Position numbers and translations under genes: made by a program
Assembly (NCBI GenBank): GCA_018819225.1
Contig: JAHJQN010000003.1
Span: forward strand, 128,001-192,000
Reading direction: 5' to 3'
DNA length: 64,000 nt
Source of the DNA: Candidatus Micrarchaeota archaeon
Lineage (GTDB): Archaea > Micrarchaeota > Micrarchaeia > Norongarragalinales > SBBD01
Notes under the pieces: model-generated
The model's database searches: none
Told to the model about the DNA's origin: nothing
What the model saw: the letters and a program-made list of their open reading frames with translations, nothing else
Part shown: positions 17,491 through 51,176 of the stretch, one piece after another
How the letters are laid out: every line of letters begins with the position of its first letter
Numbering within the stretch: position 1 is the stretch's first letter

Positions 17491-17597
17491 GGAGTGTGCA
17501 GGGGACCGGAGGTGCAACCGACCTTTCTTAACCAGAAAGCTCGACCAAAGAGCGTCAGCGCAGCGACTTTTTGATCGACATTTTTCAAAAAAGGTCG
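17491..17597. repeat. Two inverted hairpin-element units plus a degenerate copy of the tRNA-Leu 3' end
   Basis: Units 17519-17551 (-) and 17568-17597 (+); TGCAGGGGACCGGA 17497-17510 copies TGCAGGGGGCCGGA 17601-17614. Confidence 0.7.
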
Positions 17598-17600
17598 GAG

Positions 17601-17685
17601 TGCAGGGGGCCGGATTTGAACCGGCGGACCCCTAAGGGACAAGCTCCTGAAGCTTGCGCATTTGACCAGGCTCTGCCACCCCTGC
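17601..17685 (-). tRNA. tRNA-Leu(CAG)
   Basis: GCAGGGG/CCCCTGC acceptor stem, CAAGC-TTCAGGA-GCTTG anticodon arm, long variable arm, GGTTCAAATCC. Confidence 0.95.
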
Positions 17686-17864
17686 AAGAAACGTATTAAT
17701 TGGGAAACAAGGATTATAAAACCGGAAGCGGTGCATGCAATGATCCGGCGGTTATAGATACACGTACATCGGTTAAACCCGTTGTCGATCCTTCAACCCA
17801 ACCCATATATTGAAATTCCCGCATAGAATCGTTCACTCAATTAAGTACTATTAGGTGATGGATT

Positions 17865-18113
17865 ATGGGTTGTGGAGGAAACTGTCGATGTGGGCATGAC
17901 GAGATGACGTGGGTCGAGTACGGAAACCGAATCGCTTACGGCGCCAAGAAGGAGCTGCTGCACGAGGCGATCCGCGAACGCATGGCGAAAAAGCATGGAA
18001 AAGAAGTGGAAGCCATAGCGGAAGCGGTGATCAAGATCTCTGAAGGCGATTCCAAGCACGAAAACGAAGTGGAAGAGCGTTTAGAGAAGCTGTTCGGGGA
18101 AGAGGAAGAGTAA
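17865..18113 (+). CDS. Small hypothetical protein with a Cys/His-rich N-terminus
   Basis: SD AGGTGA; MGCGGNCRCGH; followed by a hairpin and T-tract. Confidence 0.65.
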   Translation: MGCGGNCRCGHDEMTWVEYGNRIAYGAKKELLHEAIRERMAKKHGKEVEAIAEAVIKISEGDSKHENEVEERLEKLFGEEEE

Positions 18114-18125
18114 GCATGTCCGTTC

Positions 18126-18157
18126 GGGCGTTACGACGCCCCCTTTTTTCTTTTTTT
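18126..18157 (+). terminator. Hairpin plus T-tract terminator
   Basis: GGGCGT-TACG-ACGCCC followed by CCTTTTTTCTTTTTTT. Confidence 0.6.
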
Positions 18158-18210
18158 CGAATCATGAGCCTCTGCTTTTTTAAGGTATTCCGGCATAATG
18201 GAGAGCGTAC

Positions 18211-18332
18211 GCTCCGATCGTCTAGTTCGGTCAAGGACGCAGGATTCTCAATCCTGTGACCCGGGTTCAAAACGCGCCGCTCTATCAAAACAACAGCAGC
18301 CAGAGCGTCTCGTGAAACTCCCGGTCGGAGCA
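18211..18332 (+). tRNA. tRNA-Glu(CTC) with a non-canonical T-loop intron (59/60; ~18272-18318)
   Basis: GCTCCGA/TCGGAGC stem; CAGGA-TTCTCAA-TCCTG; bulge-helix-bulge with central helix TTCA/TGAA. Confidence 0.9.
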
Positions 18333-18335
18333 TAC

Positions 18336-20975: not shown

Positions 20976-20977
20976 AA

Positions 20978-31489: not shown

Positions 31490-32590
31490 TTAGACGAATT
31501 TTCTGCAGATGCGTTGAACGACTTCACGATGTTCAGGAAGAGCAGCAACCAACAAACCCGTTTCCTTCAACTGAGGAAATATCGCTTTTGCAATAAACGA
31601 CGCCTGCTGCAACGGAACCAGCTTACCATCATTGAGAAGCACGGGCAAATCACTGCCACCCAACGTCTGCGAAGAAGCACAGACTACAAATGCGGACGAA
31701 TCGATATGCTGTGCGAGCTCGTTCTCGAGTTTATCGGAAGAACGCGCGTCGAAATCGCTGGCAACGAAAGCGGTTTTGAATAAACGACGATCCAGAATGC
31801 GTTGCACCAACGGAAGATCACGCAATTCAAGCAAGAGCTCGTGATCCAAGCCATTCTGAATGTCGCCGATCGAGATTCGGCTTTCCTCGAGCGCGTTTTC
31901 CAAGGCGTTCTCCATCATCTTGGAAGCGATGCGGTTCGCGTGATGATGGTAAACGGCGCGAAACATGAGGTAACGGGAGACGAGAAGACTTTCAGCAGAC
32001 AACAAGCCCTTGTGCCGGAGGACGAGTTGATTGCGGGAAAACGCCATGCTTCTCAGCAATCGTTCCGCGTCCACGAGCGAATAAGAGACGCCGGTGAAGT
32101 GCGCGTCCCGCAACAAATAGTCGATGCGATCGGTGCCGAACGCGTTTGAAATCACTTCCGCTTTCGGGCCGCGCATCAACTTCAATAGCGAGGTCGGCGA
32201 GAAACCGCGTGCTTTGAGGACGTCGGCAATGGAAGAACGCTTGATCTTGTCTTCCCCGAGCTGTTCATGGGTTTTTCCCGCGTGCTTGCGCACCAACGCT
32301 TCCGATAAATGGGAAAAAGCGGAATGACCGACATCGTGTAATAATGCGGCGAAGCGCAATAACTGCTGCTCGCTCTTACTGGGAAACAAGCGCTCGGAAA
32401 GCAAGGACGTTAAATGAAACGTGCCCAGGCTGTGCTCAAAACGATTGTGCGTAGCCGAAGGATAAACGAGGTAGGCGAGGCCGAGCTGACGCACGTAACG
32501 CAGGCGCTGCATGTCCGGGGTATCCAGAACAGCGAGCTCGGCTGCATTCACTTCAATGTTTTGGTGAACCGCGTCCCTAATTATTTTCAT
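31490..32590 (-). CDS. HD-domain phosphohydrolase (SAMHD1/dNTPase-like)
   Basis: QRLRYVRQLG, HNRFEHSLG, LLHDVGH, DRIDYLLRD. Confidence 0.9.
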   Translation of the reverse strand: MKIIRDAVHQNIEVNAAELAVLDTPDMQRLRYVRQLGLAYLVYPSATHNRFEHSLGTFHLTSLLSERLFPSKSEQQLLRFAALLHDVGHSAFSHLSEALVRKHAGKTHEQLGEDKIKRSSIADVLKARGFSPTSLLKLMRGPKAEVISNAFGTDRIDYLLRDAHFTGVSYSLVDAERLLRSMAFSRNQLVLRHKGLLSAESLLVSRYLMFRAVYHHHANRIASKMMENALENALEESRISIGDIQNGLDHELLLELRDLPLVQRILDRRLFKTAFVASDFDARSSDKLENELAQHIDSSAFVVCASSQTLGGSDLPVLLNDGKLVPLQQASFIAKAIFPQLKETGLLVAALPEHREVVQRICRKFV

Positions 32591-32659
32591 GGCATTTCCC
32601 ATCGAATTCGTTAGTCATGCTTTCTTCCTGAGAAAAGTCGCCCCAGAATGATCTTCATG
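32574..32659. repeat. Hairpin-element unit between two copies of the HD gene 5' end
   Basis: Unit 32611-32640 matches the tRNA-Lys unit at 25/30; minus strand ATGAAGATCATT upstream versus ATGAAAATAATT at the gene start. Confidence 0.65.
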
Positions 32660-32672
32660 TCGCTCACGATGC

Positions 32673-33275: not shown

Positions 33276-33337
33276 AACCCCTCTGCTTTCACTAAGAGGA
33301 GGCGCATTAAAAAAGCGTGCGGCTTGAAAAAATGCGC

Positions 33338-36673: not shown

Positions 36674-36720
36674 AATCATTCACAACCTATTTCGAAAGCC
36701 GTTTTTAAAAGCATGTAGGG

Positions 36721-38111: not shown

Positions 38112-38173
38112 CCTGAAAAGGAAACGGATGAGGAGTTAAAAAACGCGAGGGATCGCTATGCAAAGCCCCACCA

Positions 38174-39262
38174 TCAGCAGGGATCCTTGATAAGGGATTC
38201 ACACTGGGCGTCAGGCGGATTCGTGCAGGAGGTCATGTTGCAGATGAAATGATCTCCTGCCATTAAAGCGCAACTGGGAGGAAGCGTAATGACGTGGCGA
38301 GCGACCGCAGCCGGGTTGAATCCGCTCGTCCAAACCCCCGGGGAAAAAAATCGGCTGTACGACCCGTTGGAATCCGAAGTCAGATTGGAGTCCCACGTAA
38401 ACCTCCACCATTTACCGTTTAGGCATTCCGTCGAGTAATTGCTATACAGAATGAGATTGGGAGTGCACGTTCCAATACAGCAAACATCACTGCCGGTGCA
38501 CGAACCTCCGGCGTCCAGCGAGCAGGAAAGGTAGTTGTTGCAATCGTCCAGACAGACACCTGCACAGGAAGGAGAAGGTGCGACCGGGAAGTAATCGAGT
38601 TGAGGCAATTCCGTGATGCGCACGTCATCAAAACGTACTTCGGAATTTATGGATATCAAGCCGGCTTCCCCGGACGGAAAATCAAAATCAACGACGCTAA
38701 TCTCCGTCCCGCCGGAAGAGCAACGAATATTCTCTCCCTCGACCGTTATCTTGATCAAGAACCATTTGCTTTCCGGATCCGGACTGAGGATAGCGGACGC
38801 TAAATCGTTGTAAGTGTCTCCCGTCACTTTATAGCGGCGGAGTTTCAACACATTGTTTTCCACCACGCAATCATAATATTCTTGGCCCGTAAATCGCGCG
38901 ATCACTCCGGCTGTCCCAGCAGCATTCGTGCGCTTGATAAGCGCCTCAACCGCGTACTGGTTCCACGTGGAATCGCCGACAATGGAGATCCCTCGAGTAT
39001 TATCTTGTTGAACGTACTCCCCGTTATCCACGTCCCATGTGCCTGACTTGACTTTCCATTTGTACGCGTTCCCGACATCGTATGATTCGTATAAACGATA
39101 CGGCTTTCCGAATTCGTCCAGGAAATGCGCGGTTTCCCCGCCCGTCTTGTCTTCAATCGAAGGAATCAGCTCGCCCTTGATGACGAGAAACATGAATAGA
39201 GTAAAGAAGATGACGCCGGCTACGAGAATCAAGTACTCGGTTGCGGTTTGCGCGCGGCGCAT
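38174..39262 (-). CDS. Class III signal-peptide protein with ConA/DUF1080-like domain and Cys-rich C-terminus
   Basis: RAQTATEYL; FDDVRI; many Cys in the C-terminal third. Confidence 0.75.
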   Translation of the reverse strand: MRRAQTATEYLILVAGVIFFTLFMFLVIKGELIPSIEDKTGGETAHFLDEFGKPYRLYESYDVGNAYKWKVKSGTWDVDNGEYVQQDNTRGISIVGDSTWNQYAVEALIKRTNAAGTAGVIARFTGQEYYDCVVENNVLKLRRYKVTGDTYNDLASAILSPDPESKWFLIKITVEGENIRCSSGGTEISVVDFDFPSGEAGLISINSEVRFDDVRITELPQLDYFPVAPSPSCAGVCLDDCNNYLSCSLDAGGSCTGSDVCCIGTCTPNLILYSNYSTECLNGKWWRFTWDSNLTSDSNGSYSRFFSPGVWTSGFNPAAVARHVITLPPSCALMAGDHFICNMTSCTNPPDAQCESLIKDPC

Positions 39263-39269
39263 GAAAGCA

Positions 39270-39863
39270 TTACGCCTTCAGGCTTTTAAAAAGCTCGGCG
39301 AGGCGTTGCAGCTCCCCCGCATTCTTCTCGACGGAAAGCGAGTTGTCGAAGAACTTGACGTTGCACGCGTAACGCATGCCGACGTGCAACGCCGCAATGC
39401 GCTCGCAGAATAATGCCTCCTCAATCTCTTTCCGCGAATTCATTTCGCGCTTCCTTCCGGCTTTCAAATCCTTTTCCCGGCGCTCCGAAATCGCTTTCGG
39501 AGACGCTTCCACGAGAAACACGAAATCGGGTTTCAACACGTCCGAAACGGAATCCGGCGAACCCGGAAGGTACGCGTGATGGGGAATCGTGTAAATGAAG
39601 CCGTGCGTGTTCAAGAAAACGAGTTTTTCCTTGTCGGCGAGCGCGCGAATGCGTTTCGAGGCCTCTTCCCGTATCCGCACTTGGATTTCAGGAGGCAACG
39701 CCGCGATTTGCTCGCGGTCGGAAATGCCTTCCTTTTCCTTCGCGATCTCGAGCATGACATCGCCGTAAGAGATCTCGCGAATGGCGTTCTGTAATGGCTT
39801 GTTGAGCTCGCGGATGACGTGGCTTTTACCTACGGCCTTGATTCCTAGCGTGAAAACCAACAT
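39270..39863 (-). CDS. adkA: Archaeal-type adenylate kinase
   Basis: GIKAVGKS, SYGDVMLE, NTH, YLPG.P, I.ERREKD. Confidence 0.8.
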   Translation of the reverse strand: MLVFTLGIKAVGKSHVIRELNKPLQNAIREISYGDVMLEIAKEKEGISDREQIAALPPEIQVRIREEASKRIRALADKEKLVFLNTHGFIYTIPHHAYLPGSPDSVSDVLKPDFVFLVEASPKAISERREKDLKAGRKREMNSRKEIEEALFCERIAALHVGMRYACNVKFFDNSLSVEKNAGELQRLAELFKSLKA

Positions 39864-39953
39864 GTAACTCCCTCGAATCCGTTTAGTGACAGCGAATAAG
39901 GCGAAGGGGCGTTATCTTAATATTAATAATGGTTGACCCTCCTTAGAGACAAG

Positions 39954-40090
39954 GGGCTCGTAGCTCAGCTCGGAAACCTTTTCCGTTCCGGAGGAGGTTG
40001 GGCAACAGAGCGTCCGGCTTTTATTTCCAGGCCTAGAACGGTTTGGATGAAGAAACCGGAGGGTCGTGGGTTCGAATCCCACCGAGCCCG
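39954..40090 (+). tRNA. tRNA-Lys(TTT) with two introns (D-loop ~39974-40005; canonical 37/38 at 40024-40054)
   Basis: GGGCTCG/CGAGCCC acceptor; TCCGG-CTTTTA|A-CCGGA; both inserts form bulge-helix-bulge motifs. Confidence 0.9.
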
Positions 40091-40120
40091 TTCAAGTCAT
40101 GAGGGTAAGGCGTGATCGAT

Positions 40121-40174
40121 TCTTTAGTCGAGCTTTCTTCCGAAGAAAGGTCGTTCGGAATCCCACCGAGCCCG
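40121..40174 (+). repeat. Hairpin-element unit followed by an exact 17-bp copy of the tRNA-Lys 3' end
   Basis: Unit 40121-40153; GAATCCCACCGAGCCCG at 40074-40090 and 40158-40174. Confidence 0.8.
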
Positions 40175-40199
40175 CTTATGTTATTTTGAAGTGACTGGA

Positions 40200-40574
40200 A
40201 TGAAAGTGATTTTGGATACCAATTTTTTGATGTTGCCCGTGCAGAAAAACGTGGATATTTTTGAGGAAGTGGAGCGGAACGTGGATGAAAAATCGGAATT
40301 CATTGTTTTGCGCTCGTCCTTGAAAGAATTGCGGGCGCTGAAGGGAAAAGATCGGTTGAAAGCGAGGGCCATGATTCAATTCATTGAAAATAATCCCGCG
40401 ATAACGATTCGGGAAGAGGAAGGGCGAACCGACCATCTCATCATCCACTTGGCGAAATCGTGGAAAGAGAAGCTGATCGTGGGCACGAACGACCGCGCGC
40501 TGAAAACCCGTGTGAAAGCAGCAGGAGCCGGCGTGCTGGTGCTGAGAGGAAACGCGAGCCTGCAAAAGCTCTAA
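40200..40574 (+). CDS. PIN-domain protein (Fcf1/Utp24-like)
   Basis: VILDTNFL, TD..I, GTNDRALK. Confidence 0.85.
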   Translation: MKVILDTNFLMLPVQKNVDIFEEVERNVDEKSEFIVLRSSLKELRALKGKDRLKARAMIQFIENNPAITIREEEGRTDHLIIHLAKSWKEKLIVGTNDRALKTRVKAAGAGVLVLRGNASLQKL

Positions 40575-40686
40575 TTCAAAGGGGGGTCAGCAAGCCTTTT
40601 ATATACGTTTCGAGACATACTTGTTTCCTCTTGTTCCCAATTTTTTCAGGGGTTAGAAGGAAGCATATAGACCGGTGGGTGAAACC

Positions 40687-42675
40687 ATGGCGTTTGCGGA
40701 ACTGGCAGTTTATGGCATAGCGGGAGGAGTGCTCGCGTTGATAGCTGCAGCGTATTATGCGCGATTCGTTCTCAGCAAGAACAACGGGACGCCTAAAATG
40801 CAGGAAATGGCTTCCGCGATTCAATCGGGAGCTGAAGCGTACCTCAAGCGACAACTCATAACCATTGCGTTGTTTGCAGTGATCGTAGCGGCATTGATTT
40901 GGTTTGGAATCTCGTCGTCCGCAGCCATTGCATTCGTATTCGGAGCCGCTGCATCGTATTTGGCGGGAGTCATCGGCATGAGCATTTCCGTGCGTGCCAA
41001 CGTGCGAACGGCCGAAGCAGCGAAAAAAGGCTTGAAACCCGCGTTGGATATTGCGTTCAAAGGAGGAGCGGTCACGGGTTTAACGGTCGTGGGACTCGGA
41101 CTCATCGGATTGGCGGGAGTCTACATGTATTTCAACGATGTTTCAGCACTCATTGGATTCGGACTCGGGGCCTCATTGATTTCATTGTTCGCGCGAGTCG
41201 GAGGAGGCATTTATACCAAAGCGGCGGATGTCGGAGCCGATTTAGTGGGAAAAATCGAGAAGGGCATTCCGGAAGACGATCCGCGCAACCCGGCGTTCAT
41301 AGCAGACAATGTGGGAGACAATGTCGGCGACTGCGCCGGCATGGGAGCGGATTTGTTTGAAAGCCTCGTCGTGACGCTTATGGCCACCATGTTGTTGGGT
41401 TTAGCGTTCGGAGAAGGATCATTGCTCGTCGTGCTTCCATTGCTGGTGGGAGCCATCGGAGCGGTTTCCGGAATCATTGGAATGCAGTTCGTGCAACTCG
41501 GTCCGAAGAAGAACATTATGAACGCGTTAAACAAGGGAACGTATGCAACGGTTATCGTGTTCGCGGCGTTATTGTTTATGGCGTTTGCATGGTTCGGAGC
41601 CCGCATCGAATTGTGGTATGCTGCGATAACGGGGCTCGCGTTGACGATAGCCATCAGTAAAATCACTGAATATTATACCGTCAAAGAAGGACAGCCGGTA
41701 AAAGAGATTGCGTTTGCCAGCCAGACCGGTGCGGGAACCAACTTGATTCAAGGACTTGCCGTGGGATTGCAGAGCACCGCGTTCCCCGTTCTGGCCATCG
41801 TGGCAGCGATTTTAATCGCGAACCATTTTGGAGGAGTGTACGGAATTGCGTTGGCAGCGGCGGCCATGCTGTCGACTACGGGAATCATTATCGCCATTGA
41901 CTCATACGGCCCGATCACGGATAACGCGGGAGGCATTGCCGTGGCGACCGGCATGCAGAAAAGCGTTCGCCGAATCACGGATGAACTGGATGCCGTAGGA
42001 AACACGACGAAAGCGACCACGAAGGGATTCGCGATCGCCAGCGCCGCGTTAAGCGCCTTGTCGTTGTTCGTGGCGTACTCGGAATCCGTCGGACTATCGG
42101 TCATCAACATCCTGGAAGCCCCCGTGGTCGCGGGATTATTCATTGGGGGATTATTGCCTTTCATTTTCGCGTCCTATCTCATGAAAGCCGTGGGACGAGC
42201 TGCATTCAAGATGGTGGAAGAAGTCAGACACCAGTTCAAAACCATTAAAGGCATCATGCAAGGAACGGCGAAACCCAATTATGCGCGCTGCGTGGATATT
42301 AGTACGTCAGCTGCTTTGAAGGAATTGTTTACGCCGGCGGTTCTGGCGGTTACGACGCCGTTGATCGTGGGATTCGCGTTCGGCGCGGCTGCACTCGGAG
42401 GATTGTTGGCCGGAGCCATCGTCACCGGATTATTGCTCGCGTTGTTCATGGCGAACGGAGGCGCGGCATGGGATAACGCCAAGAAATACATTGAAGACGG
42501 CAAGCTCGGCGGAAAAGGCAGTGACGCGCATAAAGCGGCCGTGGTCGGAGACACGGTCGGCGACCCGTTCAAGGACACCGCAGGACCTGCATTAAACTCG
42601 CTAATCAAAGTCTTGAATACCGTGGCGCTCATCGCGGCCGCATTGATTGCAGCGAACGCACCGTTGTTCATATAA
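40687..42675 (+). CDS. hppA: Membrane ion-pumping pyrophosphatase, predicted K+-independent H+-PPase
   Basis: DVGADLVGKIE, EDDPRNP, DNVGDNVGD; GNTTKA carries the Lys associated with K+ independence. Confidence 0.93.
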   Translation: MAFAELAVYGIAGGVLALIAAAYYARFVLSKNNGTPKMQEMASAIQSGAEAYLKRQLITIALFAVIVAALIWFGISSSAAIAFVFGAAASYLAGVIGMSISVRANVRTAEAAKKGLKPALDIAFKGGAVTGLTVVGLGLIGLAGVYMYFNDVSALIGFGLGASLISLFARVGGGIYTKAADVGADLVGKIEKGIPEDDPRNPAFIADNVGDNVGDCAGMGADLFESLVVTLMATMLLGLAFGEGSLLVVLPLLVGAIGAVSGIIGMQFVQLGPKKNIMNALNKGTYATVIVFAALLFMAFAWFGARIELWYAAITGLALTIAISKITEYYTVKEGQPVKEIAFASQTGAGTNLIQGLAVGLQSTAFPVLAIVAAILIANHFGGVYGIALAAAAMLSTTGIIIAIDSYGPITDNAGGIAVATGMQKSVRRITDELDAVGNTTKATTKGFAIASAALSALSLFVAYSESVGLSVINILEAPVVAGLFIGGLLPFIFASYLMKAVGRAAFKMVEEVRHQFKTIKGIMQGTAKPNYARCVDISTSAALKELFTPAVLAVTTPLIVGFAFGAAALGGLLAGAIVTGLLLALFMANGGAAWDNAKKYIEDGKLGGKGSDAHKAAVVGDTVGDPFKDTAGPALNSLIKVLNTVALIAAALIAANAPLFI

Positions 42676-42701
42676 ATGAGTAAGGAGAGTGAAACCAACC
42701 T

Positions 42702-43310
42702 ATGTACAAACTCGTGACATTCGAAGACACGGTCCGCGTGCCGCCGGCCTTATTCGGCATGAAAATGAACCAAGCCGCCCAGCGCATATTGCGCGAGAAG
42801 TACGAGCGGGCCGTTGACAAGGGCCGGGGCATTATCCTCGGAGTCTTCAATTCAAAAATCAAGGGCGACGGAAAGATTCTGCCTGGAGACGGGTCCGCGT
42901 ACTTCGACGTACAGTACGACGCCCTCGTATTCAACTTGGAAGTGAACGAGGTCGTGGAAGGCGAGGTCAGCGAAATCGTGGAGTTCGGGGCATTCGTGCG
43001 AATGGGGCCCATTGACGGCTTGATGCACGTCTCGCAAGTCGCGAACGAGTTCCTGGCCTACGATAAAAAGCAACAGTGTCTCGTGGGAAGGGAAAGCAAG
43101 AAAACGATCCGGAAAGCCGATGCGTTGCGCGCGAAAGTGGCGACCGTCAGCTTCAAGGACACGATTCCGAACTCGAAAGTCGCGTTGACCATGCGTCCGA
43201 CGGGACTCGGAAAGCTCGCGAAAAAAGATGTGAAACAAGTCCCCAAAAAGAAAGAGAAGGCTGCTGAAAAGAAGGAAGAGAAAAGCGAGAAAGAAAAGGA
43301 ATCCAAGTGA
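42702..43310 (+). CDS. rpoE1: RNA polymerase subunit E' (Rpo7)
   Basis: RVPP..FG, GDGSAY, EFGAFVRMGPIDGLMHVSQ, LTMRPTGLGK. Confidence 0.93.
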   Translation: MYKLVTFEDTVRVPPALFGMKMNQAAQRILREKYERAVDKGRGIILGVFNSKIKGDGKILPGDGSAYFDVQYDALVFNLEVNEVVEGEVSEIVEFGAFVRMGPIDGLMHVSQVANEFLAYDKKQQCLVGRESKKTIRKADALRAKVATVSFKDTIPNSKVALTMRPTGLGKLAKKDVKQVPKKKEKAAEKKEEKSEKEKESK

Positions 43311-43322
43311 AGGTGAATCCAT

Positions 43323-43505
43323 ATGATGAAAGCGTGTCGCACCTGCCGGCTTCTATTTGAAGGCGAAAAATGCCCGTCGTGCCCGGAATCCGAAAGCACG
43401 CGAACGTTCGAAGGCGCCGTGTACATCATCGACGTGGAACGATCCGAAATTGGAAAGCGCATCGGTGCGAAAGTGCCCGGTAAGTACGCCTTGAAGCTTA
43501 AGTGA
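43323..43505 (+). CDS. spt4: Transcription elongation factor Spt4 (RpoE'')
   Basis: KACRTC...CPSC...PGKYALK. Confidence 0.92.
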   Translation: MMKACRTCRLLFEGEKCPSCPESESTRTFEGAVYIIDVERSEIGKRIGAKVPGKYALKLK

Positions 43506-43515
43506 GGAGATAACC

Positions 43516-44037
43516 ATGAACATCGAAGTCATCAACGAGAAGGAAAACCCCTTGTTCGAACGCAAAGAAGTCGTCGTTAAAGTACCGGTTGAAAAGCAAA
43601 CGCCTTCCCGAAAAGAAGTCGTCGACGCCCTTTCCAAGAAGTACGGGAATTCCAAGGAACTGATCGTCATTGAAAAAATCGACCAGCGGTTCGGAGGAAA
43701 AGAGGCCACGATTTACGCTCGATTATATGATACGGAGAAGGCGGCACGGCAAGCCCCAGACTACTTGAAGGAACGCGGAGGGGTTGCCGCGCCCAAGAAA
43801 GAAGAAAAGAAGGCGGATAGCCAGCCATCATTCGAAGAACTCGTGAGCGGCAAGAAACCGGAAGCCCAGAAAGAAGCGCCTGCTGAAAAGAAGGAAGAAA
43901 AACCCAAAGAAGCAAAAGCGCCGGAAAAGAATGAGGAGAAAAAGGAACCTCTAAAGAAGGAAGAGCAACCTGCTGAAAAGAAGGCGGAAAAGCCAGCGGA
44001 GAAAAAAGCAGTAGCTCAAAAGGAAGAGAAAACGTAG
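43516..44037 (+). CDS. rps24e: Ribosomal protein eS24 with a Lys/Glu-rich C-terminal extension
   Basis: ENPLFERKE, TPSRKEV, FGG...ARLY; operon position. Confidence 0.9.
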   Translation: MNIEVINEKENPLFERKEVVVKVPVEKQTPSRKEVVDALSKKYGNSKELIVIEKIDQRFGGKEATIYARLYDTEKAARQAPDYLKERGGVAAPKKEEKKADSQPSFEELVSGKKPEAQKEAPAEKKEEKPKEAKAPEKNEEKKEPLKKEEQPAEKKAEKPAEKKAVAQKEEKT

Positions 44038-44048
44038 GTGAATGATTC

Positions 44049-44189
44049 ATGGCGGAAAAGAAAGGGAAAAAAACACTGAAACCGTATTCCCCGAGGCGGT
44101 TCTGCCCAAAATGCGGGTCCAGCAGTCGTTTGGGAGAACACGCGGACCGCAGGAGCTGCGGAAAATGCAAGTACATGGAAAAGAAATAA
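44049..44189 (+). CDS. rps27ae: Ribosomal protein eS31 (S27ae)
   Basis: Translated by hand: ...[30 protein letters not shown]; follows rps24e. Confidence 0.92.
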
Positions 44190-44281
44190 ACACTTCCATT
44201 TTTGATCGGCCTTTTTGAAAAGGGCGTGCCGGCCAACGCAAGTACATGGAGCAGAAATAAACCATTCCAGTTTTGGTCGAC
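44167..44281 (+). repeat. Duplicated rps27ae 3' end (period 71 nt) around a hairpin-element unit
   Basis: GCAAGTACATGGAAAAGAAATAAAC 44167 versus GCAAGTACATGGAGCAGAAATAAAC 44238; unit TTTTTGATCGGCCTTTTTGAAAAGGGCG 44199-44226. Confidence 0.75.
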
Positions 44282-44296
44282 GGCGCTTTATTCCGG

Positions 44297-45244
44297 TTAT
44301 AGCAGGGAATGAGCGGCGGGCTTCTTGGCGAACGGCGATACATCACCGATATCCATTACCCCGCAAACATACCGCACCAATCGTTCCACTCCGAAACCGA
44401 GTCCCACGGTGCGGGAGAGCTTGCCTTGACGGACGAGCTCTGAAAAAAAGCCGTAGTCTTCCAGGGACTGGCCGCGCTCCCTAATTTTTTTCTCGATCTT
44501 ATGTTGTTCATGCTCTCGCTCGGCACCGCTGGCCGCTTCACCGTAACCCTCCGGATAAATCAAATCGTAGTTGCGGTGAACGCCTTGCTCCTCCCGATCG
44601 TAAAACTCGCGAACGTGATCCGTGATCCAGAACATGTCTTGCTCGTACAAGGAAAGCGTGTCCTCGGCTTGCCGGCTGTTCCGGCCAAACCGCGGAACGA
44701 TCTCGCTCATGGAAAAACGCTTGAAAGGCCTTTGAGGCACGCGAAGCGTTCTCCCGAGACGGGCGAGTTCGATGGAATGGCTCCGCTTGACGTCCGATAG
44801 AATGCGAACCATGAGTTCTTCACAGAACGGAATGAACCGCTCTTGGTCACCGTGCCGGAATTCAATGTCGACTTGAGTGAACTCGATCAGGTGCCGGTCG
44901 CTATCCTTCAAATCCTCTTTCTCCAGACGCACGTTCGGGGAAACGATGTACAGCGCATCAAGATACGGGGACATCAAGGCCACTTGCTTATGGAAAATCA
45001 TGCTTTTCGTGAGCTGAAGCTTCTGGCCGTAATAATCGATGCTCGCGTCAATAACGGTATGGGCGAGGGGATCCGTTACAGGGGAAACGACGCTAGGCAA
45101 GAGTTGCACGACCTTTTTTTCGGCCATGAAATCGGATACGGATTTCAAGATCGTGGTCTGGATGGAAAGAATGTCACGCATTCGTTGCGAACGAAGCTTA
45201 TCCACGATTTTTTGAATAGGAACCGCAAATGAAATGGACTCCAT
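44297..45244 (-). CDS. asnA: Archaeal asparagine synthetase A (AsnRS catalytic-domain homologue)
   Basis: SPVTDPL, LTKSMIFHKQ, SPNVRLE, RHLIEFTQVD, GEAASGAERE, GVERL; no anticodon-binding domain. Confidence 0.88.
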   Translation of the reverse strand: MESISFAVPIQKIVDKLRSQRMRDILSIQTTILKSVSDFMAEKKVVQLLPSVVSPVTDPLAHTVIDASIDYYGQKLQLTKSMIFHKQVALMSPYLDALYIVSPNVRLEKEDLKDSDRHLIEFTQVDIEFRHGDQERFIPFCEELMVRILSDVKRSHSIELARLGRTLRVPQRPFKRFSMSEIVPRFGRNSRQAEDTLSLYEQDMFWITDHVREFYDREEQGVHRNYDLIYPEGYGEAASGAEREHEQHKIEKKIRERGQSLEDYGFFSELVRQGKLSRTVGLGFGVERLVRYVCGVMDIGDVSPFAKKPAAHSLL

Positions 45245-45368
45245 AGGATAACCAAAACGCTTATAATGATGCTCCCTAATAACAATATTGACCAAAAAAT
45301 CGACAATTATAACATTAAACGATAGATTATCCATTGATTATCCGACATTTTGATTAAGGTGAGGTATA

Positions 45369-45806
45369 GTGAACGGAAAGGATGGGCGAATCCTGGAGAT
45401 ATTGAAAAACAACGGGCGAATGAGTACGGTGGAGATTTCTGGAAAAACAGGAATTCCGCGCGTGACCGTGCACGAGAGAATGAAAAAAATGCTCCATGCG
45501 GGCGTCATCCGAAAGTTTTCCGTTGTACCGGACTATTCGAAACTCGGACTCAACACGACGGCGTTCGTACTTGTCGGGTACGTTGACTCCGAGAATTCCC
45601 AGAGAGAGCTCGCCAAGAAAATCGGGGCCATGAAAGAAGTATATGAAGTGCACATTCTGGCAGGGGAATGGGATTTGCTGCTTAAAGTGAGGGGGAGCAG
45701 CATTGAAGACATTGGCGGACTCGTTGTGGACCGAATACGGAAAATGGATGGAGTCGGGCGTACGGAAACCATCCCCTGTTTTACAACCGTCAAGGAAGAA
45801 GGTTGA
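45369..45806 (+). CDS. Lrp/AsnC-family regulator
   Basis: ILEILKNNGR...TVHERMKKM...GVI; AGEWDLLLKV; divergent from asnA. Confidence 0.92.
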   Translation: MNGKDGRILEILKNNGRMSTVEISGKTGIPRVTVHERMKKMLHAGVIRKFSVVPDYSKLGLNTTAFVLVGYVDSENSQRELAKKIGAMKEVYEVHILAGEWDLLLKVRGSSIEDIGGLVVDRIRKMDGVGRTETIPCFTTVKEEG

Positions 45807-45814
45807 TAACGGAC

Positions 45815-46534
45815 ATGTGGGTGGCTCGGTTAAAAGTGTGGCATGCGAACTCGTATACTGCGGAGAAAACCGCGCGGTTGAACGCCTCCTACCTCGTCTA
45901 TAATTTGAATGCATTCGAGCATAACGGGGAAACGTGGATCGCGCGCGTCGCCTTTGTTTCAGGACCGGACGCGGACAAACTCATCGAGATGTTCTACAAT
46001 GATACGCGTCTCGTGGTCGAACAAGTAAAAGGCCGGCAAGTTTTCTTTTCTCATCTCGCCAAATCCGCGTTTCATCACGGATTATTGGACAAACACGTAT
46101 TCTTTCTGAAACCGAATATCGCGATTCGGGGAGAGGAGTATTGGACCGTTGCCTCCTATCGGAAAAAAAACATTCAAGACCTCGTGGAAAAATTGAATGG
46201 AAATAAAAAAGTGTCGCGTTGTGAAATGCTGAGCCTCAAGCCAGAACCCGTGGATGTGTTTGAAGCCGGGCTTTTCGAGCATTTGACCGACAAACAGAAA
46301 TGGGCGTATCAATCCGCATTCCGATACGGGTATTACCGGTATCCGAGAGAACACGATGTCGAGGAAATTGCGAAAAAACTCGGGGTTCCGGAAAGCACGT
46401 TCCGAGAACACTTGAGGAAAGCGGAAAGCAAGCTGCTTTCGGGGCTGCATACCTGGCTGCAACCCGAAAACGAGTACCTCACCATCCATAAAAAACTAAA
46501 CACCCGCGCTATCGCGGCTAAATTCCTATATTAA
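45815..46534 (+). CDS. HTH_10 (Bat-type) regulator, paralogue of 5925
   Basis: MWVARLKVWH versus MWVAKFKAWH; WTVAS; LTDKQ...GYYRYPR...STFREHLRKAESKL. Confidence 0.85.
   Translation: MWVARLKVWHANSYTAEKTARLNASYLVYNLNAFEHNGETWIARVAFVSGPDADKLIEMFYNDTRLVVEQVKGRQVFFSHLAKSAFHHGLLDKHVFFLKPNIAIRGEEYWTVASYRKKNIQDLVEKLNGNKKVSRCEMLSLKPEPVDVFEAGLFEHLTDKQKWAYQSAFRYGYYRYPREHDVEEIAKKLGVPESTFREHLRKAESKLLSGLHTWLQPENEYLTIHKKLNTRAIAAKFLY
46504..46517. promoter_or_regulatory. Palindrome CCGCG-CTAT-CGCGG, candidate HTH_10 operator
   Basis: Same CCG-N8-CGG geometry and central TAT as 6577; precedes TATATTAAG. Confidence 0.5.
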
Positions 46535-46592
46535 GGTATGATTATTGTTTACTCCAAAGAGCAGGTCGGTGTAGACCGTGGGGGTAAGTGAC

Positions 46593-46709
46593 ATGGCCGT
46601 TGAAGTGATCGTAATCATCGTAGCCGTATTCATCGTATGGCAAACCGTGCGCGATTGGAAGCGCCAAGAAAAACGAACACTTTATAGAACGAAAGAGATT
46701 CGGTACTAG
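46593..46709 (+). CDS. 38-aa single-TM micropeptide (MAVEVIVIIVAVFIVWQTVRDWKRQEKRTLYRTKEIRY)
   Basis: Translated by hand; GGGGGT SD-like sequence; ends 13 nt before the swivel-domain gene. Confidence 0.55.
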   Translation: MAVEVIVIIVAVFIVWQTVRDWKRQEKRTLYRTKEIRY

Positions 46710-46722
46710 GGGGAAAGGCGTT

Positions 46723-48258
46723 ATGAACGATTGGATATTAAAAAACGAGGAAGAGGGAACCAGCGTATGGACATTGACCACGTTCATCCCCATGTTTCTT
46801 TACGATTTGAAGAAAACCGTAGGCAAACCCTTGCACTGCAGCATGGAATTCGAAGGCACGCGCATGCGATGGTACCCCTCCAAAACAGAAAGCGAGCAGC
46901 TCTCCATCGAACTCGTCGAAAAACTGAAGAACCGCCCCATCATTTCACAAACAAGCCGGAAAAAACTCGTGAACGATTGCGAAAAATTGAATGCGTTTTC
47001 GCAGGCATTATCTCAGAACACGGGCGATTTAACGAATGAAGAGATTGGGGAATATTTTGAGAAACACCACCTCATTCTGCGAGGAGTGCTGGCCGAAGGA
47101 ATGATCACCACGCTGCCGGATTTCGGGGAAGGAAGGTACGTGAGCTTTCTCGAAGCTTTTTTGGAAAAACGCATCCGCGAAAAAAAGCTCGGCAAAAAAG
47201 CGCCGGAATTACTGGCGGAATTGACGTATGAATCCGGGGAAAACATCCAGAAACAAGAGCTCAAGGCCCTATTGGAACTGGCGGTTGAGATCCAAAAGGC
47301 AAATATAGGCGGCACGGATCCGGAAAGGCTCGAAAACGAACTGAACCGACGACCGGAAATCAAGAAACGCCTTTCCGATCACGTGAAAGCGTTCGAGTGG
47401 GCCTATTTCGGATATACCGGCCCGGTGCTCACGGAAAAAAAAGTGTTGGAAGAACTGGCGTTAATGCAGAAAGAAGAAAAACACGCGGAAAAAGAACTGG
47501 AACGAATGAAAAGAGAATCCATTCAAGCAGAACAAAAGAAGAAAGAGGCGCAGAAGGCACTGGATTTGAGTCCACGCGAACGGGAATGGTTTCAAGTGGC
47601 ATCGGATGCCGTGTTCACCAAAACGTATCGACGGGATGCCACCACTTATTCGTTCTATCGGATGACTCCGTTACTTCGGGAAGTGAGTCGGCGGACGAAA
47701 ATGCCGCTTGAGCGCGTGCAATGTATTATGGCGGGGGAAATGAATGAGGTGCTCGAGAATCCGAAGGCTTGGGAACCGGAATTGAAGGCGCGTCAAGAAT
47801 ACTGTATTTGCACGGCAGAAGGAGAGGCACCGCGCATGTACTCCGGAAAGGAAGCGAAAGCGTATGCGAAGCGCTTCATTCCCGTTGAAAAAGTCGAGGA
47901 CGTGAATGAAATCGTTGGGAAATGCGCGTGCCCGGGAATAGCCGTCGGAAGAGTGCGCGTTATCGACACGCCCACTGAAATGCACGGAATGAAAAAAGGC
48001 GATATCCTCGTTTCCACGGCGACTCAACCCGATATTGTACCGGCCATGAAAAAAGCAGCGGCCATCGTGACCAACATCGGAGGCATTACATCTCATGCGG
48101 CCATCGTTTCAAGGGAATTGGGGGTGCCGTGCGTCATCGGAACGCGCATTGCAACCAAAGTACTGAAAAACGGGGATCTCGTGGAAGTGGATGCGACGAA
48201 CGGCATCGTGAAGAAAATCAAGGAATGGCCGAAAAAGGAAAAGACTATATTCCAGTAA
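46723..48258 (+). CDS. Phospho-His swivel-domain protein with helical N-terminal region
   Basis: GKCACPG...AAAIVTNIGGITSHAAIVSRELGVPCVIG. Confidence 0.85.
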   Translation: MNDWILKNEEEGTSVWTLTTFIPMFLYDLKKTVGKPLHCSMEFEGTRMRWYPSKTESEQLSIELVEKLKNRPIISQTSRKKLVNDCEKLNAFSQALSQNTGDLTNEEIGEYFEKHHLILRGVLAEGMITTLPDFGEGRYVSFLEAFLEKRIREKKLGKKAPELLAELTYESGENIQKQELKALLELAVEIQKANIGGTDPERLENELNRRPEIKKRLSDHVKAFEWAYFGYTGPVLTEKKVLEELALMQKEEKHAEKELERMKRESIQAEQKKKEAQKALDLSPREREWFQVASDAVFTKTYRRDATTYSFYRMTPLLREVSRRTKMPLERVQCIMAGEMNEVLENPKAWEPELKARQEYCICTAEGEAPRMYSGKEAKAYAKRFIPVEKVEDVNEIVGKCACPGIAVGRVRVIDTPTEMHGMKKGDILVSTATQPDIVPAMKKAAAIVTNIGGITSHAAIVSRELGVPCVIGTRIATKVLKNGDLVEVDATNGIVKKIKEWPKKEKTIFQ

Positions 48259-48276
48259 TTTCAGTAAAGAACAGCG

Positions 48277-48390
48277 ATGCGCATGGAACCGGGAATCTTC
48301 GAACTGGCCGCCCTCGTATTCATCGTCGCTGCGGTCTTCAGCGATAAAATCAGGGAAAAAGCCTTATTCGGCAAATATCAAGGCAACTAG
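48277..48390 (+). CDS. 37-aa single-TM micropeptide (MRMEPGIFELAALVFIVAAVFSDKIREKALFGKYQGN)
   Basis: Translated by hand; fills the gap, and its stop overlaps the pfkB stop. Confidence 0.45.
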   Translation: MRMEPGIFELAALVFIVAAVFSDKIREKALFGKYQGN

Positions 48391-49286
48391 ATGTGCAGCT
48401 TCTCGCGGTAGTGATTAAAGCGCGCTTCCACGTCTTCTGAAGCAATGGATACCAGCCCGTTCACGCTGAAATCCTGAACGCAGAACGAACCCATAATCGT
48501 GCCGTACGCGAGCGCCTCCTTCAACGTCTTCTCCTCCACTTTATTCGATCGGGCCAGGTGACCGAAGAAGCCGCCGCCAAAAGAATCTCCGGCGCCCGTC
48601 GGATCCACCACGGAAGACAACGGAAATGCCGGTAAGGGGAACACGAAATCCTTATAGAACAAGATGCTGCCGTTCTCCCCTTTCTTGATCACCACGAGCT
48701 CCGGCCCCCATTCCTGAATCGTGGAAGCGCATTCAAACAAGTTCGGGGACTTGCAAAGCATGCGCGCCTCAATATCATTCAAGACCATGCCGTCCACTTT
48801 AGCCATCACTTTCCTGAGCGCGGGCTTTTGCGTCTCAATATAGAACTCAATCGTATCCATGAGCGCGAAACGCGGCCGGCAGTTCTCCAGCATCTTCAAT
48901 TGTTTTGCGGGTTCGAGCGTTCCCAAGTAAAGAAAAGGGGTTTTGCGCAACGAATCGGGAACCACGGGATCGAAATGCGCGTACACGTTTAATTCCGTGG
49001 CGTGCGTCTTGCGCGCGTAGTAATCGTAAGAGAACTCGGAATCGAAAAACATGGTTTTTCCTTTCACGCGTTGAACGCCTTGGAGATCGATGTGGCGGCT
49101 CTCCAGCAACTTCCAATGCGCTTGCGGAAAGTCTTTACCCACGACGCCAATGAGTGCAACGGGACAAAAGTGTGAAGCGGAAAGGGAAAAATAGGTCGCC
49201 GCTCCACCCAAAACGCGTTTCATGGTCTTGAACGGGGTGCGCGTCGTATCCAATGCAATGCTTCCAGTTCCCAGAATCACGTACAC
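48387..49286 (-). CDS. PfkB/ribokinase-family carbohydrate kinase
   Basis: GSIALD, GGAATY, DPTGAGDSF; exact start uncertain. Confidence 0.9.
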   Translation of the reverse strand: MYVILGTGSIALDTTRTPFKTMKRVLGGAATYFSLSASHFCPVALIGVVGKDFPQAHWKLLESRHIDLQGVQRVKGKTMFFDSEFSYDYYARKTHATELNVYAHFDPVVPDSLRKTPFLYLGTLEPAKQLKMLENCRPRFALMDTIEFYIETQKPALRKVMAKVDGMVLNDIEARMLCKSPNLFECASTIQEWGPELVVIKKGENGSILFYKDFVFPLPAFPLSSVVDPTGAGDSFGGGFFGHLARSNKVEEKTLKEALAYGTIMGSFCVQDFSVNGLVSIASEDVEARFNHYREKLHI

Positions 49287-49291
49287 CCACC

Positions 49292-50608
49292 TCATAATGA
49301 AAACGATTCTCCCCGCGAAGGCACGTGCACCTTGAACGGACGTTCTTGTTTCTTCGCGAGCAGATCCAACGCGTCTTTTAACTCCAAACAGGTTCGTTCC
49401 TCTCCGTGGACAACAAAAACGTTTTTCAACGAAGGCATGTTGCGCACCAAATGAATGAGTTCATCGCGATCCGCGTGCGCCGACAAGCGCGCTTCCTCCA
49501 CTTCCAACTTCAAATGCACGCGCTCGCCATCGATTTCCACGTCGCGCACGCCGTCCGACAATTGTCTTCCCAACGTGCCTTCCGCTTGATAACCCGTAAG
49601 CAAGACCTTGTTCTTGCGATCGTTCGCCAGCGCTTTCAAATACAGCAGGGAAGGTCCTCCGGACAACATGCCGGAAGGCGCGACAATAATCGCCTTCTCT
49701 TTTTCGAATACCTCGTGACGGTCTTTGCTCGTGGGAGTCACGTAATGCTTGCTCTTGAACGGGTCGTCCTCGGAAGTCAGAATGCGGCGTTTGATCTCGT
49801 CCTTCAAGTACAAGGCATTGTGACGGTGAATGCGCAACGCCTTGCGCACCATCCCGTCCATAAAAATGGGTACGCTTTCCAGATGGCCGGAACGCATGAA
49901 GTTTTCCAGGATGAAAAGGACTTCTTGGCCGCGACCGATGGCGAACGTAGGAATCAAGACCTTGCCGCCCTTATCCAACGTCTTTTGAACGCTGCTCACG
50001 AGTCGTTGCGCCAATTCTTTTGAAGACGCCCGTTGGTCGTTCACTCCCCCGTATGTACCCTCCATAATCAATACGTCCGCGTCCACGCCATTGAGGTCAG
50101 CCGAAGGCAGCAGGCGAGTCGACCGGCAGGAAAAATCGCCCGTATAAAGCAGGCGTTGCGTATCATAAACTTCGACCATCGCGCTACCCAGAATATGGCC
50201 GGCATCGCGGAATTGAATCATGTTCAAGGAATCGCGTTCCCCGTATTCCAACAACTCCGTGTTCGTGAGGAACTGGTTGACATCCGTTTCCTTGAAAGGC
50301 GCCAGCTCGGGATTCAAGCGAAGGTAATCCGCAAGAAGAATCTGCGTGAAATCGCGCGTCGGTTTCGTGCACGCCACCTTCCCCTTGTAACCGGAAGCAT
50401 ATAACGCCGGAATATACCCGGAATGATCCAGATGCGCGTGCGACAAAATCACTTTCTCGATGCGGCGAATCTGTTTTCTATCCAAAAGCGGATATTCTTC
50501 GTTGCGGGAAAACTTGACGCCGGCATCCAAAAGAAGGGTGTGCTTGCCTTCCAGCAGGAAACAACTGCGTCCGACTTCCCGGCATGCCCCTAAAAAGGAA
50601 AGCTGCAT
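49292..50608 (-). CDS. Beta-CASP MBL-fold ribonuclease without KH domains (aCPSF2-like)
   Basis: EVGRSC, SHAHLDHSG, AGHILG, EGTYG, SGMLSGG, SAHAD, VHGE. Confidence 0.9.
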   Translation of the reverse strand: MQLSFLGACREVGRSCFLLEGKHTLLLDAGVKFSRNEEYPLLDRKQIRRIEKVILSHAHLDHSGYIPALYASGYKGKVACTKPTRDFTQILLADYLRLNPELAPFKETDVNQFLTNTELLEYGERDSLNMIQFRDAGHILGSAMVEVYDTQRLLYTGDFSCRSTRLLPSADLNGVDADVLIMEGTYGGVNDQRASSKELAQRLVSSVQKTLDKGGKVLIPTFAIGRGQEVLFILENFMRSGHLESVPIFMDGMVRKALRIHRHNALYLKDEIKRRILTSEDDPFKSKHYVTPTSKDRHEVFEKEKAIIVAPSGMLSGGPSLLYLKALANDRKNKVLLTGYQAEGTLGRQLSDGVRDVEIDGERVHLKLEVEEARLSAHADRDELIHLVRNMPSLKNVFVVHGEERTCLELKDALDLLAKKQERPFKVHVPSRGESFSL

Positions 50609-50611
50609 GGA

Positions 50612-51028
50612 CTAACCCGCCGCCGCCTTGTTCAAGGGAGGCTTCGGTTTGGAAACGCCGAACTTTTGTCCCGTAATCGGAGCCGGAATTCCGACGCTGA
50701 ACGAAAGCAGCGTGCCAACAACCATTCCCGTATGCGCGACGGAATTCAAAATCTCCTCGGAGAACGCGGGCTCCAAGCGCTTCGTTTTTTCCCACGACTC
50801 CTTGATTTCTTTCAAGCGTTTCTCCTCTCCTTGATAGAAGATCTGGCCGGAAATCGTGATGCGCGCTAGTTTTTGGCGGTATTCCAGGAAATAATCGTAA
50901 TCCACAAACAGCATCTTGTCCTTGATCTCCATCTTCGAAACGTGGATGTTTACGTCCAAGCCCTGGACTTTCGTCGCATCCGAAAATTTCTCAACCGCCG
51001 CCTTGAAAATCTTGCCTCCAGCAATCAT
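50612..51028 (-). CDS. Conserved-looking archaeal hypothetical protein
   Basis: 138 aa alpha/beta pattern; SD GAGGTG; in operon with the beta-CASP gene. Confidence 0.7.
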   Translation of the reverse strand: MIAGGKIFKAAVEKFSDATKVQGLDVNIHVSKMEIKDKMLFVDYDYFLEYRQKLARITISGQIFYQGEEKRLKEIKESWEKTKRLEPAFSEEILNSVAHTGMVVGTLLSFSVGIPAPITGQKFGVSKPKPPLNKAAAG

Positions 51029-51079
51029 GCCAATGCACCTCTAGAATAACGAGTAAATACTGTTTTGCATTTGAGCGGC

Positions 51080-51176
51080 CGCTTTTTTATGCCTTTTGCA
51101 ACCGACCCCGCTCCACGAAATCCATCGATTGATGCCACCCGCCTAGTTTGAAAAAGGTCGCTTTTTATGCCTTTGC
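51080..51176. repeat. Duplicated promoter segment around a degenerate hairpin-element end
   Basis: CGCTTTTTTATGCCTTTTGC 51080-51099 and CGCTTTTTATGCCTTTGC 51159-51176; TTTGAAAAAGGTCG runs into the second copy; CGACC at 51103. Confidence 0.6.

Follow-up and report, generated by a model that had tools for sequence, protein, structure and literature searches.

The window, that is, the whole stretch of 64,000 nucleotides analysed here, belongs to a Candidatus Micrarchaeota genome and contains five loci at which a short hairpin unit (H) lies between two copies of a host sequence, all of them where an earlier note on this DNA had placed them. First of all, the tRNA-Leu(CAG) gene (17600..17685, minus strand) is an intact host gene whose T-loop and 3′ end (about 17598–17622) are the functional copy. 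A unit of the A subtype (17568..17597, plus strand) has its 3′ end 3 nt from that tRNA 3′ end and forms an outward-facing doublet with a unit of the B subtype, which has a G.G mismatch in the stem (17519..17551, minus strand); the same doublet is found at tRNA-Leu(TAG) C7:14729 and at C1:18791. The second copy of the tRNA-Leu 3′ end (17491..17518, minus strand) follows directly after the B unit, its first 10 or so nucleotides being noisy. At the HD-domain gene, the start in current use (32574..32590, minus strand), which would be the cassette-borne allele, is separated by a decayed B-type unit (32610..32640, plus strand) from an orphan start (32641..32658, minus strand) that keeps the same four residues with two silent changes, so that the synonymous differences read here earlier are borne out. 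The orphan lies 14 nt past the stop of the upstream gene, a spacing similar to that in several single-copy relatives, and on sequence comparison it is the ancestral, resident start position; the HD locus is the only one where resident and incoming copies were told apart.

The tRNA-Lys(UUU) gene (39954..40090, plus strand), with 40071–40090 as functional T-loop and 3′ end, was read by hand and carries one D-loop and one anticodon-loop intron, which agrees with the identity first proposed; ARAGORN calls it Arg with one intron. It is followed by a cassette spacer (40091..40122, plus strand) with only weak similarity to the stretch beyond the second copy, a B unit (40121..40153, plus strand) and the second copy of the tRNA 3′ end (40154..40174, plus strand), in which the 17-bp exact repeat is present together with one extra base at position 4. 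As had been counted before, the Leu and Lys 33-mers are identical at 28 of 33 positions, the differences being at positions 6 and 19–22, four of them in the loop. In rps27ae (PF01599; 44049..44189, plus strand), the final 10 or so codons are the copy in use; a partly diverged A unit (44199..44226), the second copy of the 3′ end with its trailer (44227..44269) and the 5′ half of an older unit in the matching place behind that copy (44270..44281) follow on the same strand. Finally, between two divergent genes, an intergenic T-rich segment, a putative promoter in the earlier note, occurs twice (51081..51099 and 51160..51176, plus strand), with a decayed A-type unit of which only the 14-nt 3′ end is left between them (51147..51160, plus strand). 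An independent contig spans 32000–51600 with zero differences or gaps (it comes from the same sample and is not biologically independent), and so these loci are not an assembler artefact. Two further sequencing runs contain mere fragments of this strain, which leave the sites uncovered.

In form, H consists of a T-rich 5′ tag and an imperfect palindrome of the 20–40-nt class with a stem mismatch and compensatory variants in the lower stem; the stem has 10–11 bp and the loop is variable. Four units of the window fold as hairpins with z from −2.1 to −5.4, and the decayed unit at 32610 has a z of −0.7. By the general criteria of loop and stem, H was rejected as a dif or attC site, and no match was found in Rfam, i.e., among known structured RNA families. 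When this genome (G000; 90% complete, 8 contigs numbered with C) was scanned with a weight matrix trained on its own matches, 35 units scored above 22 as against 0.33 per shuffled genome, so the copies are not due to chance. In this groundwater archaeon, dozens of gene and tRNA boundaries carry H. The enrichment of flanking repeats, for which a profile scan had been proposed, is indeed seen: a direct repeat scoring at least 26 flanks 22 of the 35 units as against 1.7% of random sites, and the inverted control reaches this score in only 3 of 35, those 3 lying in or adjoining the doublets and the tandem array. The claim of a second copy beside every unit holds at the window loci, where the repeats are seen, but not genome-wide, the repeat being absent at about a third of units, including those inside tRNA and rRNA introns. 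Moreover, the repeats measure 13 to about 85 nt, usually 20–45 nt, rather than the 15–25 bp first estimated. The second copy begins 0–5 nt after H, often at the T-loop; near position 4 past H an extra base recurs in it and often frameshifts this copy or breaks its T-loop.

The two copies of each gene end were then compared as sequences under selection. In 7 coding pairs of the H family, whose boundaries were set by eye and from which noisy codons adjoining H were left out for HD and locus L146, there are 21.5 silent and 7.5 replacement differences (pS 0.64, pN 0.051); pN/pS is about 0.08. Neutral decay of one copy is rejected with P=4e-11, and with 1.3e-6 when silent drift of the gene is allowed for as well. 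At L207, a match found blind, 12 residues and the stop are identical with 7 silent changes, while at L005 both copies retain the ribosome-binding motif but differ in the bases from the motif to the start codon. The tRNA copies have an identity of 0.89 inside the tRNA boundary and 0.48 outside it, and they are without CCA. Mutagenesis of the DGR type was rejected, because the changes are not A-specific but synonymous. Since silent sites differ by 64% and replacement sites by 5%, and the similarity stops at the gene boundary, the second copy is no decaying duplicate; judged from these comparisons, the two copies are diverged, formerly functional alleles of different descent. That is to say, copies that differ almost only silently suggest that the cassettes travel between lineages with their own working gene end.

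For the same reasons, the simple target-site duplication made on insertion, which had been the first reading, is probably incomplete as a model. In its fuller form, a transposase, a Cas1-like integrase or a target-primed reverse transcriptase (RT) would make staggered cuts 15–90 nt apart at stem-loops, and the unused copy would decay. Near-perfect copies running up to H at tRNA-Trp C2:102763, L003 and the C6 array fit this, as does the start of the second copy so close to H, often in the T-loop, and a similar process may seed new sites. However, neutral decay is rejected by the pN/pS ratio and by L207, the similarity ends at gene boundaries, no RT was found and no link to Cas1, and at C7:91718 the gene end and A unit are 44/45 identical with adjoining spacers far more diverged. 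As the sole process, target-site duplication is already contradicted, and as the main explanation we consider it unlikely.

The arrangement of the units adds a relative order. At C7:91718, window position 44270, C3:87844, C1:258892 and C2:102675, the second copy is followed by an older unit, and newer cassettes, as read from this order, stack in front of older ones. The tRNA-Thr(GGT) gene has three 5′ ends and two stacked units with differing spacers; the subtype follows the target class, with one doublet at Leu ends and one stem variant at both Thr genes, and two Val genes have both end and unit in common. Paralogous tRNAs, then, have cassettes in common. A tandem array of a 47-bp unit plus flank breaks the assembly between C1 and C6; such an array is what a circle multimer would give, and it is the sole hint of a circular intermediate. 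The empty sites that were to be sought in relatives are present, in a family-level comparison, in most of them: the end of rps27ae carries independent cassettes in G000, G002 and G010 and is single-copy in 8 of 10 relatives.

The two-allele pattern would also be predicted by passive hitch-hiking, in which a rare chance duplication is followed by transformation with one long homologous arm and the duplicate as a short second arm, spreading the allele, with H kept as a terminator or RNA-stabilising hairpin. Host functions would suffice for it, which matches the absence of a detected enzyme, and an unrelated GC-rich hairpin family has the same anatomy. But it leaves unexplained one identical hairpin in archaeal phyla and Clostridia and at no fewer than 35 loci (at least 35), the fixed polarity and tandem array, and persistence despite deletion between repeats, and it is accordingly given a low probability.

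As to the mobilising enzyme, the statement that none is linked to H stands. Searches of this genome (90% complete) did not find Y1, RT (RVT_1), TnpB, IS110 or REP_ORF2-G2P, and a Y2 HUH search gave zero matches, its control being likewise silent; H itself has no coding room. In Clostridia, H is absent from four Y1 loci and from the RT loci. Among 11 family genomes, Cas1 occurs in exactly the two carriers of the exact pattern; as the enzyme of H it was rejected, since here it belongs, as a Cas4-Cas1 gene, to a type I-G CRISPR locus, and a search of 5 other carriers found it in none of them; the casposon idea raised earlier gains no support. None of 12 CRISPR spacers read matches H. The only tyrosine recombinase of the genome has no unit beside it, and no long version with a distant second copy was found, which also speaks against the ‘scar of a larger element’ first suggested. 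These two results weigh in the same way on the idea that the units are attL/attR scars of integrase-encoding elements that lost all but a hairpin. In its favour, archaeal tRNA ends are often duplicated as att sites (PMC3293823), and a 140-bp repeat is found behind Leu-type ends at four places, but one hairpin serves dozens of unrelated targets; such an origin is rated very improbable. The most likely candidate for the enzyme, held with about even confidence, is an HUH or Rep-type nickase acting in trans together with host RadA; otherwise host recombination alone would be at work.

Much the same low standing is given to a miniature guide RNA, in which H and the second copy (hairpin handle plus 20-nt guide, cf. 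type V crRNA and omega-RNA) would steer an enzyme in trans to empty alleles. A variable-loop handle is directly followed by target-matching sequence, the noise falls at the would-be seed, and some copies allow pairing between the 5′ tag and the loop; yet TnpB and IS110 are missing from the finds in this genome, Rfam gives no match, self-targeting would be expected, and the matching copy is absent at a third of units.

The earlier note is supported in its view of a tiny non-autonomous mobile element that occurs at many unrelated sites and does not disrupt the host gene. We regard as somewhat more probable than its opposite a one-ended cassette which, in the manner of attP or ISCR circles, uses homology for its re-entry and has no enzyme of its own. 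The cassette, about 45–130 nt and encoding nothing, would consist of the terminal 15–45 nt of a host gene (S), a variable spacer (X) and H as the fixed 3′ end. It may exit as a small circle or fragment, probably of single-stranded DNA, that is released either by cutting or priming at the 3′ end of H or by looping-out between two copies. For re-entry into another chromosome, or into a paralogous tRNA gene, S would pair with the gene end resident there, and a single crossover would give gene-S(cassette)-X-H-S(resident). The S of the cassette would then take over as the gene end and drift silently as its own lineage; since it replaces the gene end, it would stay under purifying selection, as does the piece of a gene carried in a phage attP, and the resident end that it displaces would be an allele that was functional until recently. 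The noisy bases that follow H, few in number, would move with the cassette, new sites would arise by capture of an upstream flank or by striking a look-alike target, and inside tRNA or rRNA introns H would ride without duplication. RadA by itself is inefficient at homologous integration over 20–45 nt that are about 80% identical, and this, with no enzyme found, counts against the cassette. Selection on both copies without transfer would be expected if both were used in place, the cassette being spliced from RNA or bypassed so that either end is expressible, and H does occur within tRNA and 16S introns. But cassettes work in sense orientation to the transcript at 3′ ends and in antisense orientation at 5′ ends, the extra base near H often frameshifts the second copy or breaks its T-loop, and the cassette borders inspected have no splice motif; use in place is the least probable of the readings considered.

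Beyond this genome, H is letter-for-letter the same across archaeal phyla and Clostridia. It lies inside tRNA and 16S introns of DPANN archaea, while in Clostridia it heads a modular, doublet-forming, REP-like repeat with housekeeping genes as neighbours. Viral contigs scanned for H gave 0 and 1 matches, the single match having no duplication or evident Rep gene, and the literature, as partially covered, yielded no published description of the family. A bolder and tentative reading, held with less than even confidence, is that of a new class of minimal replicators: protein-free cassettes of 45–130 nt, made of a hairpin tag and an essential host gene end, which would persist as independent lineages until silent sites are near saturation, find their targets from species to species through sequence pairing, exchange the ends of ribosomal-protein, tRNA and rRNA genes and contribute sequence to the tRNA and rRNA introns of archaea, with the hairpin common to a bacterial repeat family. 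Within this reading, a hairpin common to archaeal cassettes and bacterial repeats would imply an unrecognised enzyme active in both domains. If the cassette is real, it would rank with the smallest known mobile DNAs and would open an unrecognised route of horizontal exchange for core gene ends (ribosomal proteins, tRNAs, 5S rRNA) in DPANN archaea; a 30-nt signal backing homology-guided insertion at many sites would point to an enzyme of possible use in genome editing. The origin of archaeal tRNA introns is an open question (bioRxiv 10.64898/2026.10.13.758758), and H, being present in tRNA and 16S introns, is therefore a tag by which intron gain can be followed. In practice, the duplicates lead to errors in the annotation of tRNAs and start codons and interrupt assemblies.

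Compared with known systems, H differs from retro-elements (SINE-like, DGR) in the lack of RVT_1, in changes that are synonymous and not A-specific and in the lack of CCA. Enzymes of the IS200/605 type leave no flanking repeats and use a fixed target tetranucleotide (PMC3333891), whereas 22 of 35 H units have long direct repeats and their junction bases vary, unlike derivatives of these elements (PATE). With REP/BIME/REPIN sequences (TnpA-REP; PMC3333891, PMC3733652), H has in common a short conserved 5′ tag, an imperfect hairpin of 20–40 nt, doublets, tandem arrays and an intergenic position, but its tag is neither of the two described REP tetranucleotides (PMC3733652), no cognate Y1 HUH gene was found in the genome or beside the units, and diverged gene ends are not known from REPs. 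Like MITEs, H is small, non-coding and dispersed, and three Leu-type doublets resemble inverted ends between direct repeats; terminal inverted repeats are absent in single units, however, most units being single-ended with no partner transposase, and the duplication is not short, fixed and identical but 13 to about 85 nt long with a pS of 0.64. Casposons and Cas1 integrate with a preference for tRNA T-arms and with long direct repeats, and CRISPR arrays stack with polarity. H shares the T-arms and the repeats, and its stacking recalls CRISPR arrays, but there is no casposase, no solo Cas1 co-occurring with PolB (only the type I-G Cas4-Cas1), and the H copies are diverged alleles.

Phage 21 and e14 integrate at icd. 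In such elements with attP in a gene end, as in H, the gene is rebuilt with the end of the element, the displaced copy is a direct repeat and silent differences are possible; H differs in cassettes of 45–130 nt without integrase, in one hairpin for dozens of unrelated targets at both 5′ and 3′ ends, and in stacking. The integrative elements of the SSV1 and pNOB8 types at tRNA genes (PMC3293823) likewise have a gene-restoring direct repeat, but with an integrase gene between or across the repeats, for which the H inserts of less than 130 nt have no counterpart. The ISCR/IS91 elements are a hundred times larger than H, carry a Y2 transposase gene that the unit lacks, and capture whole genes rather than landing-site gene ends. 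Nevertheless, they have one fixed end, a variable captured flank, re-entry of a circle by homologous recombination, duplicated flanks and multimers, all of which are like H, for which the circle and its re-entry are presumed, and ISCR1, where a circle and homologous recombination lead to duplicated flanks (PMC7707992), provides the precedent for the cassette proposed here.

The hairpin unit of about 30 bases was found at all five loci of the window (tRNA-Leu, tRNA-Lys, the HD gene, rps27ae and an intergenic segment) as the earlier note had described; the Leu and Lys units are indeed identical at 28 of 33 positions, with four of the differences in the loop. In the fold test, four of the five units form hairpins, and the HD-gene unit is decayed. 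The host genome (G000, contigs C1 to C8; the window lies on C1) comes from groundwater, has a size of 1.37 Mb and is 90% complete, and as a check on assembly artefacts, another assembly made from the same sample agrees exactly with the window over 32000–51600. Among the named homologues of a protein encoded in the window, the best belongs to Micrarchaeota. The tRNA-Lys(UUU) gene (window 39954–40090) carries two introns, one in the D-loop and one in the anticodon loop; ARAGORN either fails to detect the gene or assigns it to Arg.

At loci with a duplication, the order is the in-gene copy of the gene end, a spacer of 0–70 nt on the 5′ side of the hairpin, the hairpin, a second copy of the gene end beginning 0–5 nt past its 3′ end, and the sequence behind it. 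The initial 3–10 nt of the second copy are often noisy, an extra base near position 4 being frequent, and past this start the copy is near-perfect as far as the gene boundary. At 11 tRNA loci, the copies have an ungapped identity of 0.89 within the tRNA, not counting the anchor, and of 0.48 beyond it.

Scanning of G000 with a two-arm weight matrix (score cut-off 22) gave 35 units, against 0.33 per shuffled genome. When the 130 nt before each unit were compared with the 45 nt after it, and scores of at least 26 were counted, direct repeats flanked 22 of the 35 units and 1.7% of random positions. The units target the 3′ ends of tRNA genes (Leu, Lys, Trp, Ser, Pro, Val and others), the 5′ ends of tRNA genes (Thr, Leu), the 5S rRNA end, and starts and stops of protein genes. 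There are two subtypes, A with a fully paired stem and B with a G.G mismatch; variation in the lower three stem pairs is compensatory. Units without a direct repeat include those inside tRNA introns and a B-type unit in a 16S rRNA intron, bulge-helix-bulge by appearance (C3:97489-97523, outside the window). A 47-bp tandem array of at least four copies, each a unit plus a 13-nt flank, occupies C1:268175-268309 and C6:1-161, at the junction between C1 and C6, where the assembly breaks upstream of a PCNA-like gene.

Judged by their divergence, the two gene-end copies are two alleles. Seven coding pairs of this hairpin family (three from G000, four from the genome G002), whose boundaries were set by eye, a source of bias, contain 21.5 silent differences against 7.5 replacements (pS 0.64, pN 0.051); neutral decay of one copy is rejected at P = 4e-11, or at 1.3e-6 when silent drift of the gene is allowed for too. 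At L207 in genome G007, found through the hairpin pattern alone, two 13-codon copies have the same translation and seven silent changes. The target-duplication origin claimed earlier does not agree with this, since a decaying duplicate cannot yield mainly silent divergence; as the whole story it is unlikely, but target duplication may still seed new sites. At L005 the ribosome-binding motif is kept in both copies. That both copies are in use is the least credible of the readings. The mainly silent pattern could come from a cassette that always brings the working version of the gene fragment, just as phage attP gene fragments bring a functional copy with the element. The orphan HD start lies 14 nt past the stop of the upstream gene. 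Several single-copy relatives have their start at this position, so the resident is the copy beyond the hairpin, and the in-gene copy was brought by the cassette. Both copies share lineage-specific residues, which points to a related donor line.

Probably the gene-end stretch, spacer and hairpin leave together in the form of a small circle or a fragment; re-entry would take place by pairing of the gene-end stretch with the resident gene end, with one crossover near its left. Such a single crossover would explain why the gene is intact, why the orphan copy was functional until recently and why the noise beside the hairpin is inherited, as well as stacking, hopping between paralogues and multimers. 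A precedent is ISCR1, in which capture by a rolling circle is followed by re-entry through homologous recombination (PMC7707992), and TnpA-REP provides models in the form of cleavage that a hairpin directs from a distance, circles of single-stranded DNA and capture of flanks (PMC3333891).

Among relatives, nine have a single HD start and 8 of 10 a single rps27ae end, empty sites that hold at family level only because these are other genera; at the rps27ae end, G002 and another genome, G010, each have their own hairpin cassette. Five loci have older units behind the second copy, and at tRNA-Thr(GGT) two units with differing spacers separate three 5′ ends, showing that new cassettes land in front of old ones. 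One A+B doublet with a 22-nt linker recurs at the two Leu tRNAs that lack introns and, at C1:18791, at a Leu-like end; two Thr genes carry a common stem variant, and the Val genes have ends and one unit in common; this recurrence at similar genes indicates that movement follows sequence similarity. A 3′ stretch of 32–33 nt is identical in three tRNA-Val genes (C7:51960-52114, C7:91821-91892, C6:75410-75482), which suggests exchange of ends between paralogues. Passive hitch-hiking of the hairpin is improbable, to about the same degree as target duplication alone, and a guide RNA made of the hairpin and second copy is still less probable.

As the earlier note had it, no mobilising enzyme is linked to the unit: the search of G000 gave no candidate tied to it, and Y1, RT, TnpB, IS110 and REP_ORF2-G2P were not found there. 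The single tyrosine recombinase of G000 has no unit nearby, and that the duplications are integrase scars is very doubtful. Cas1 was rejected, being part of a type I-G CRISPR locus with a Cas4-Cas1 fusion, Cas2 and Cas3 (C2:1-10346, with arrays at contig ends, the C2 end and the C7 start). Clostridial Y1 and RT loci and viruses showed no link to the hairpin; one unit is intergenic in a 36-kb viral contig, without duplication (L206:12866-12896).

The exact pattern occurs in 4 of 401 genomes searched in the phylum and 3 of 68 in the order, so G000 is unusually rich in units. Nanoarchaeota, Woesearchaeota, Bilamarchaeum and other archaea have it too; there it often lies within tRNA introns, and most copies lack a repeat. 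Oscillospiraceae and other Clostridia carry a longer REP-like repeat that has the A subtype as its first module and forms inverted doublets; long flanking repeats are rare in these bacteria. This clostridial repeat is abundant, modular and intergenic (L010, L013, L040, L100 and about 90 other loci), and has no Rfam match; at L084 and L024 a terminator-like hairpin is duplicated around it. A second, GC-rich hairpin family, unrelated to the first, has the same cassette anatomy in G000 (C2:242867, the rps10 end; C4:19474) and G010, with a further locus at L192, and its copies show 10 silent and 0 replacement changes. Behind tRNA-Leu-type ends lies a 140-bp repeat, 77–83% identical (C7:14590-14729, C7:235301-235439, C1:914-990, C1:1707-1846), one copy of which sits before restriction-modification-like genes. 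The C2 end, the C3 start and both C4 ends have in common a repeat that lies next to a tRNA-like end.

The literature search found no paper describing this hairpin-cassette family, and the cassettes are best placed among small non-autonomous elements; that they form a new class is less likely than not. They work like an attP-bearing circle, and the unit is similar in appearance to REP, but on a defining test the cassette falls outside each known family examined.
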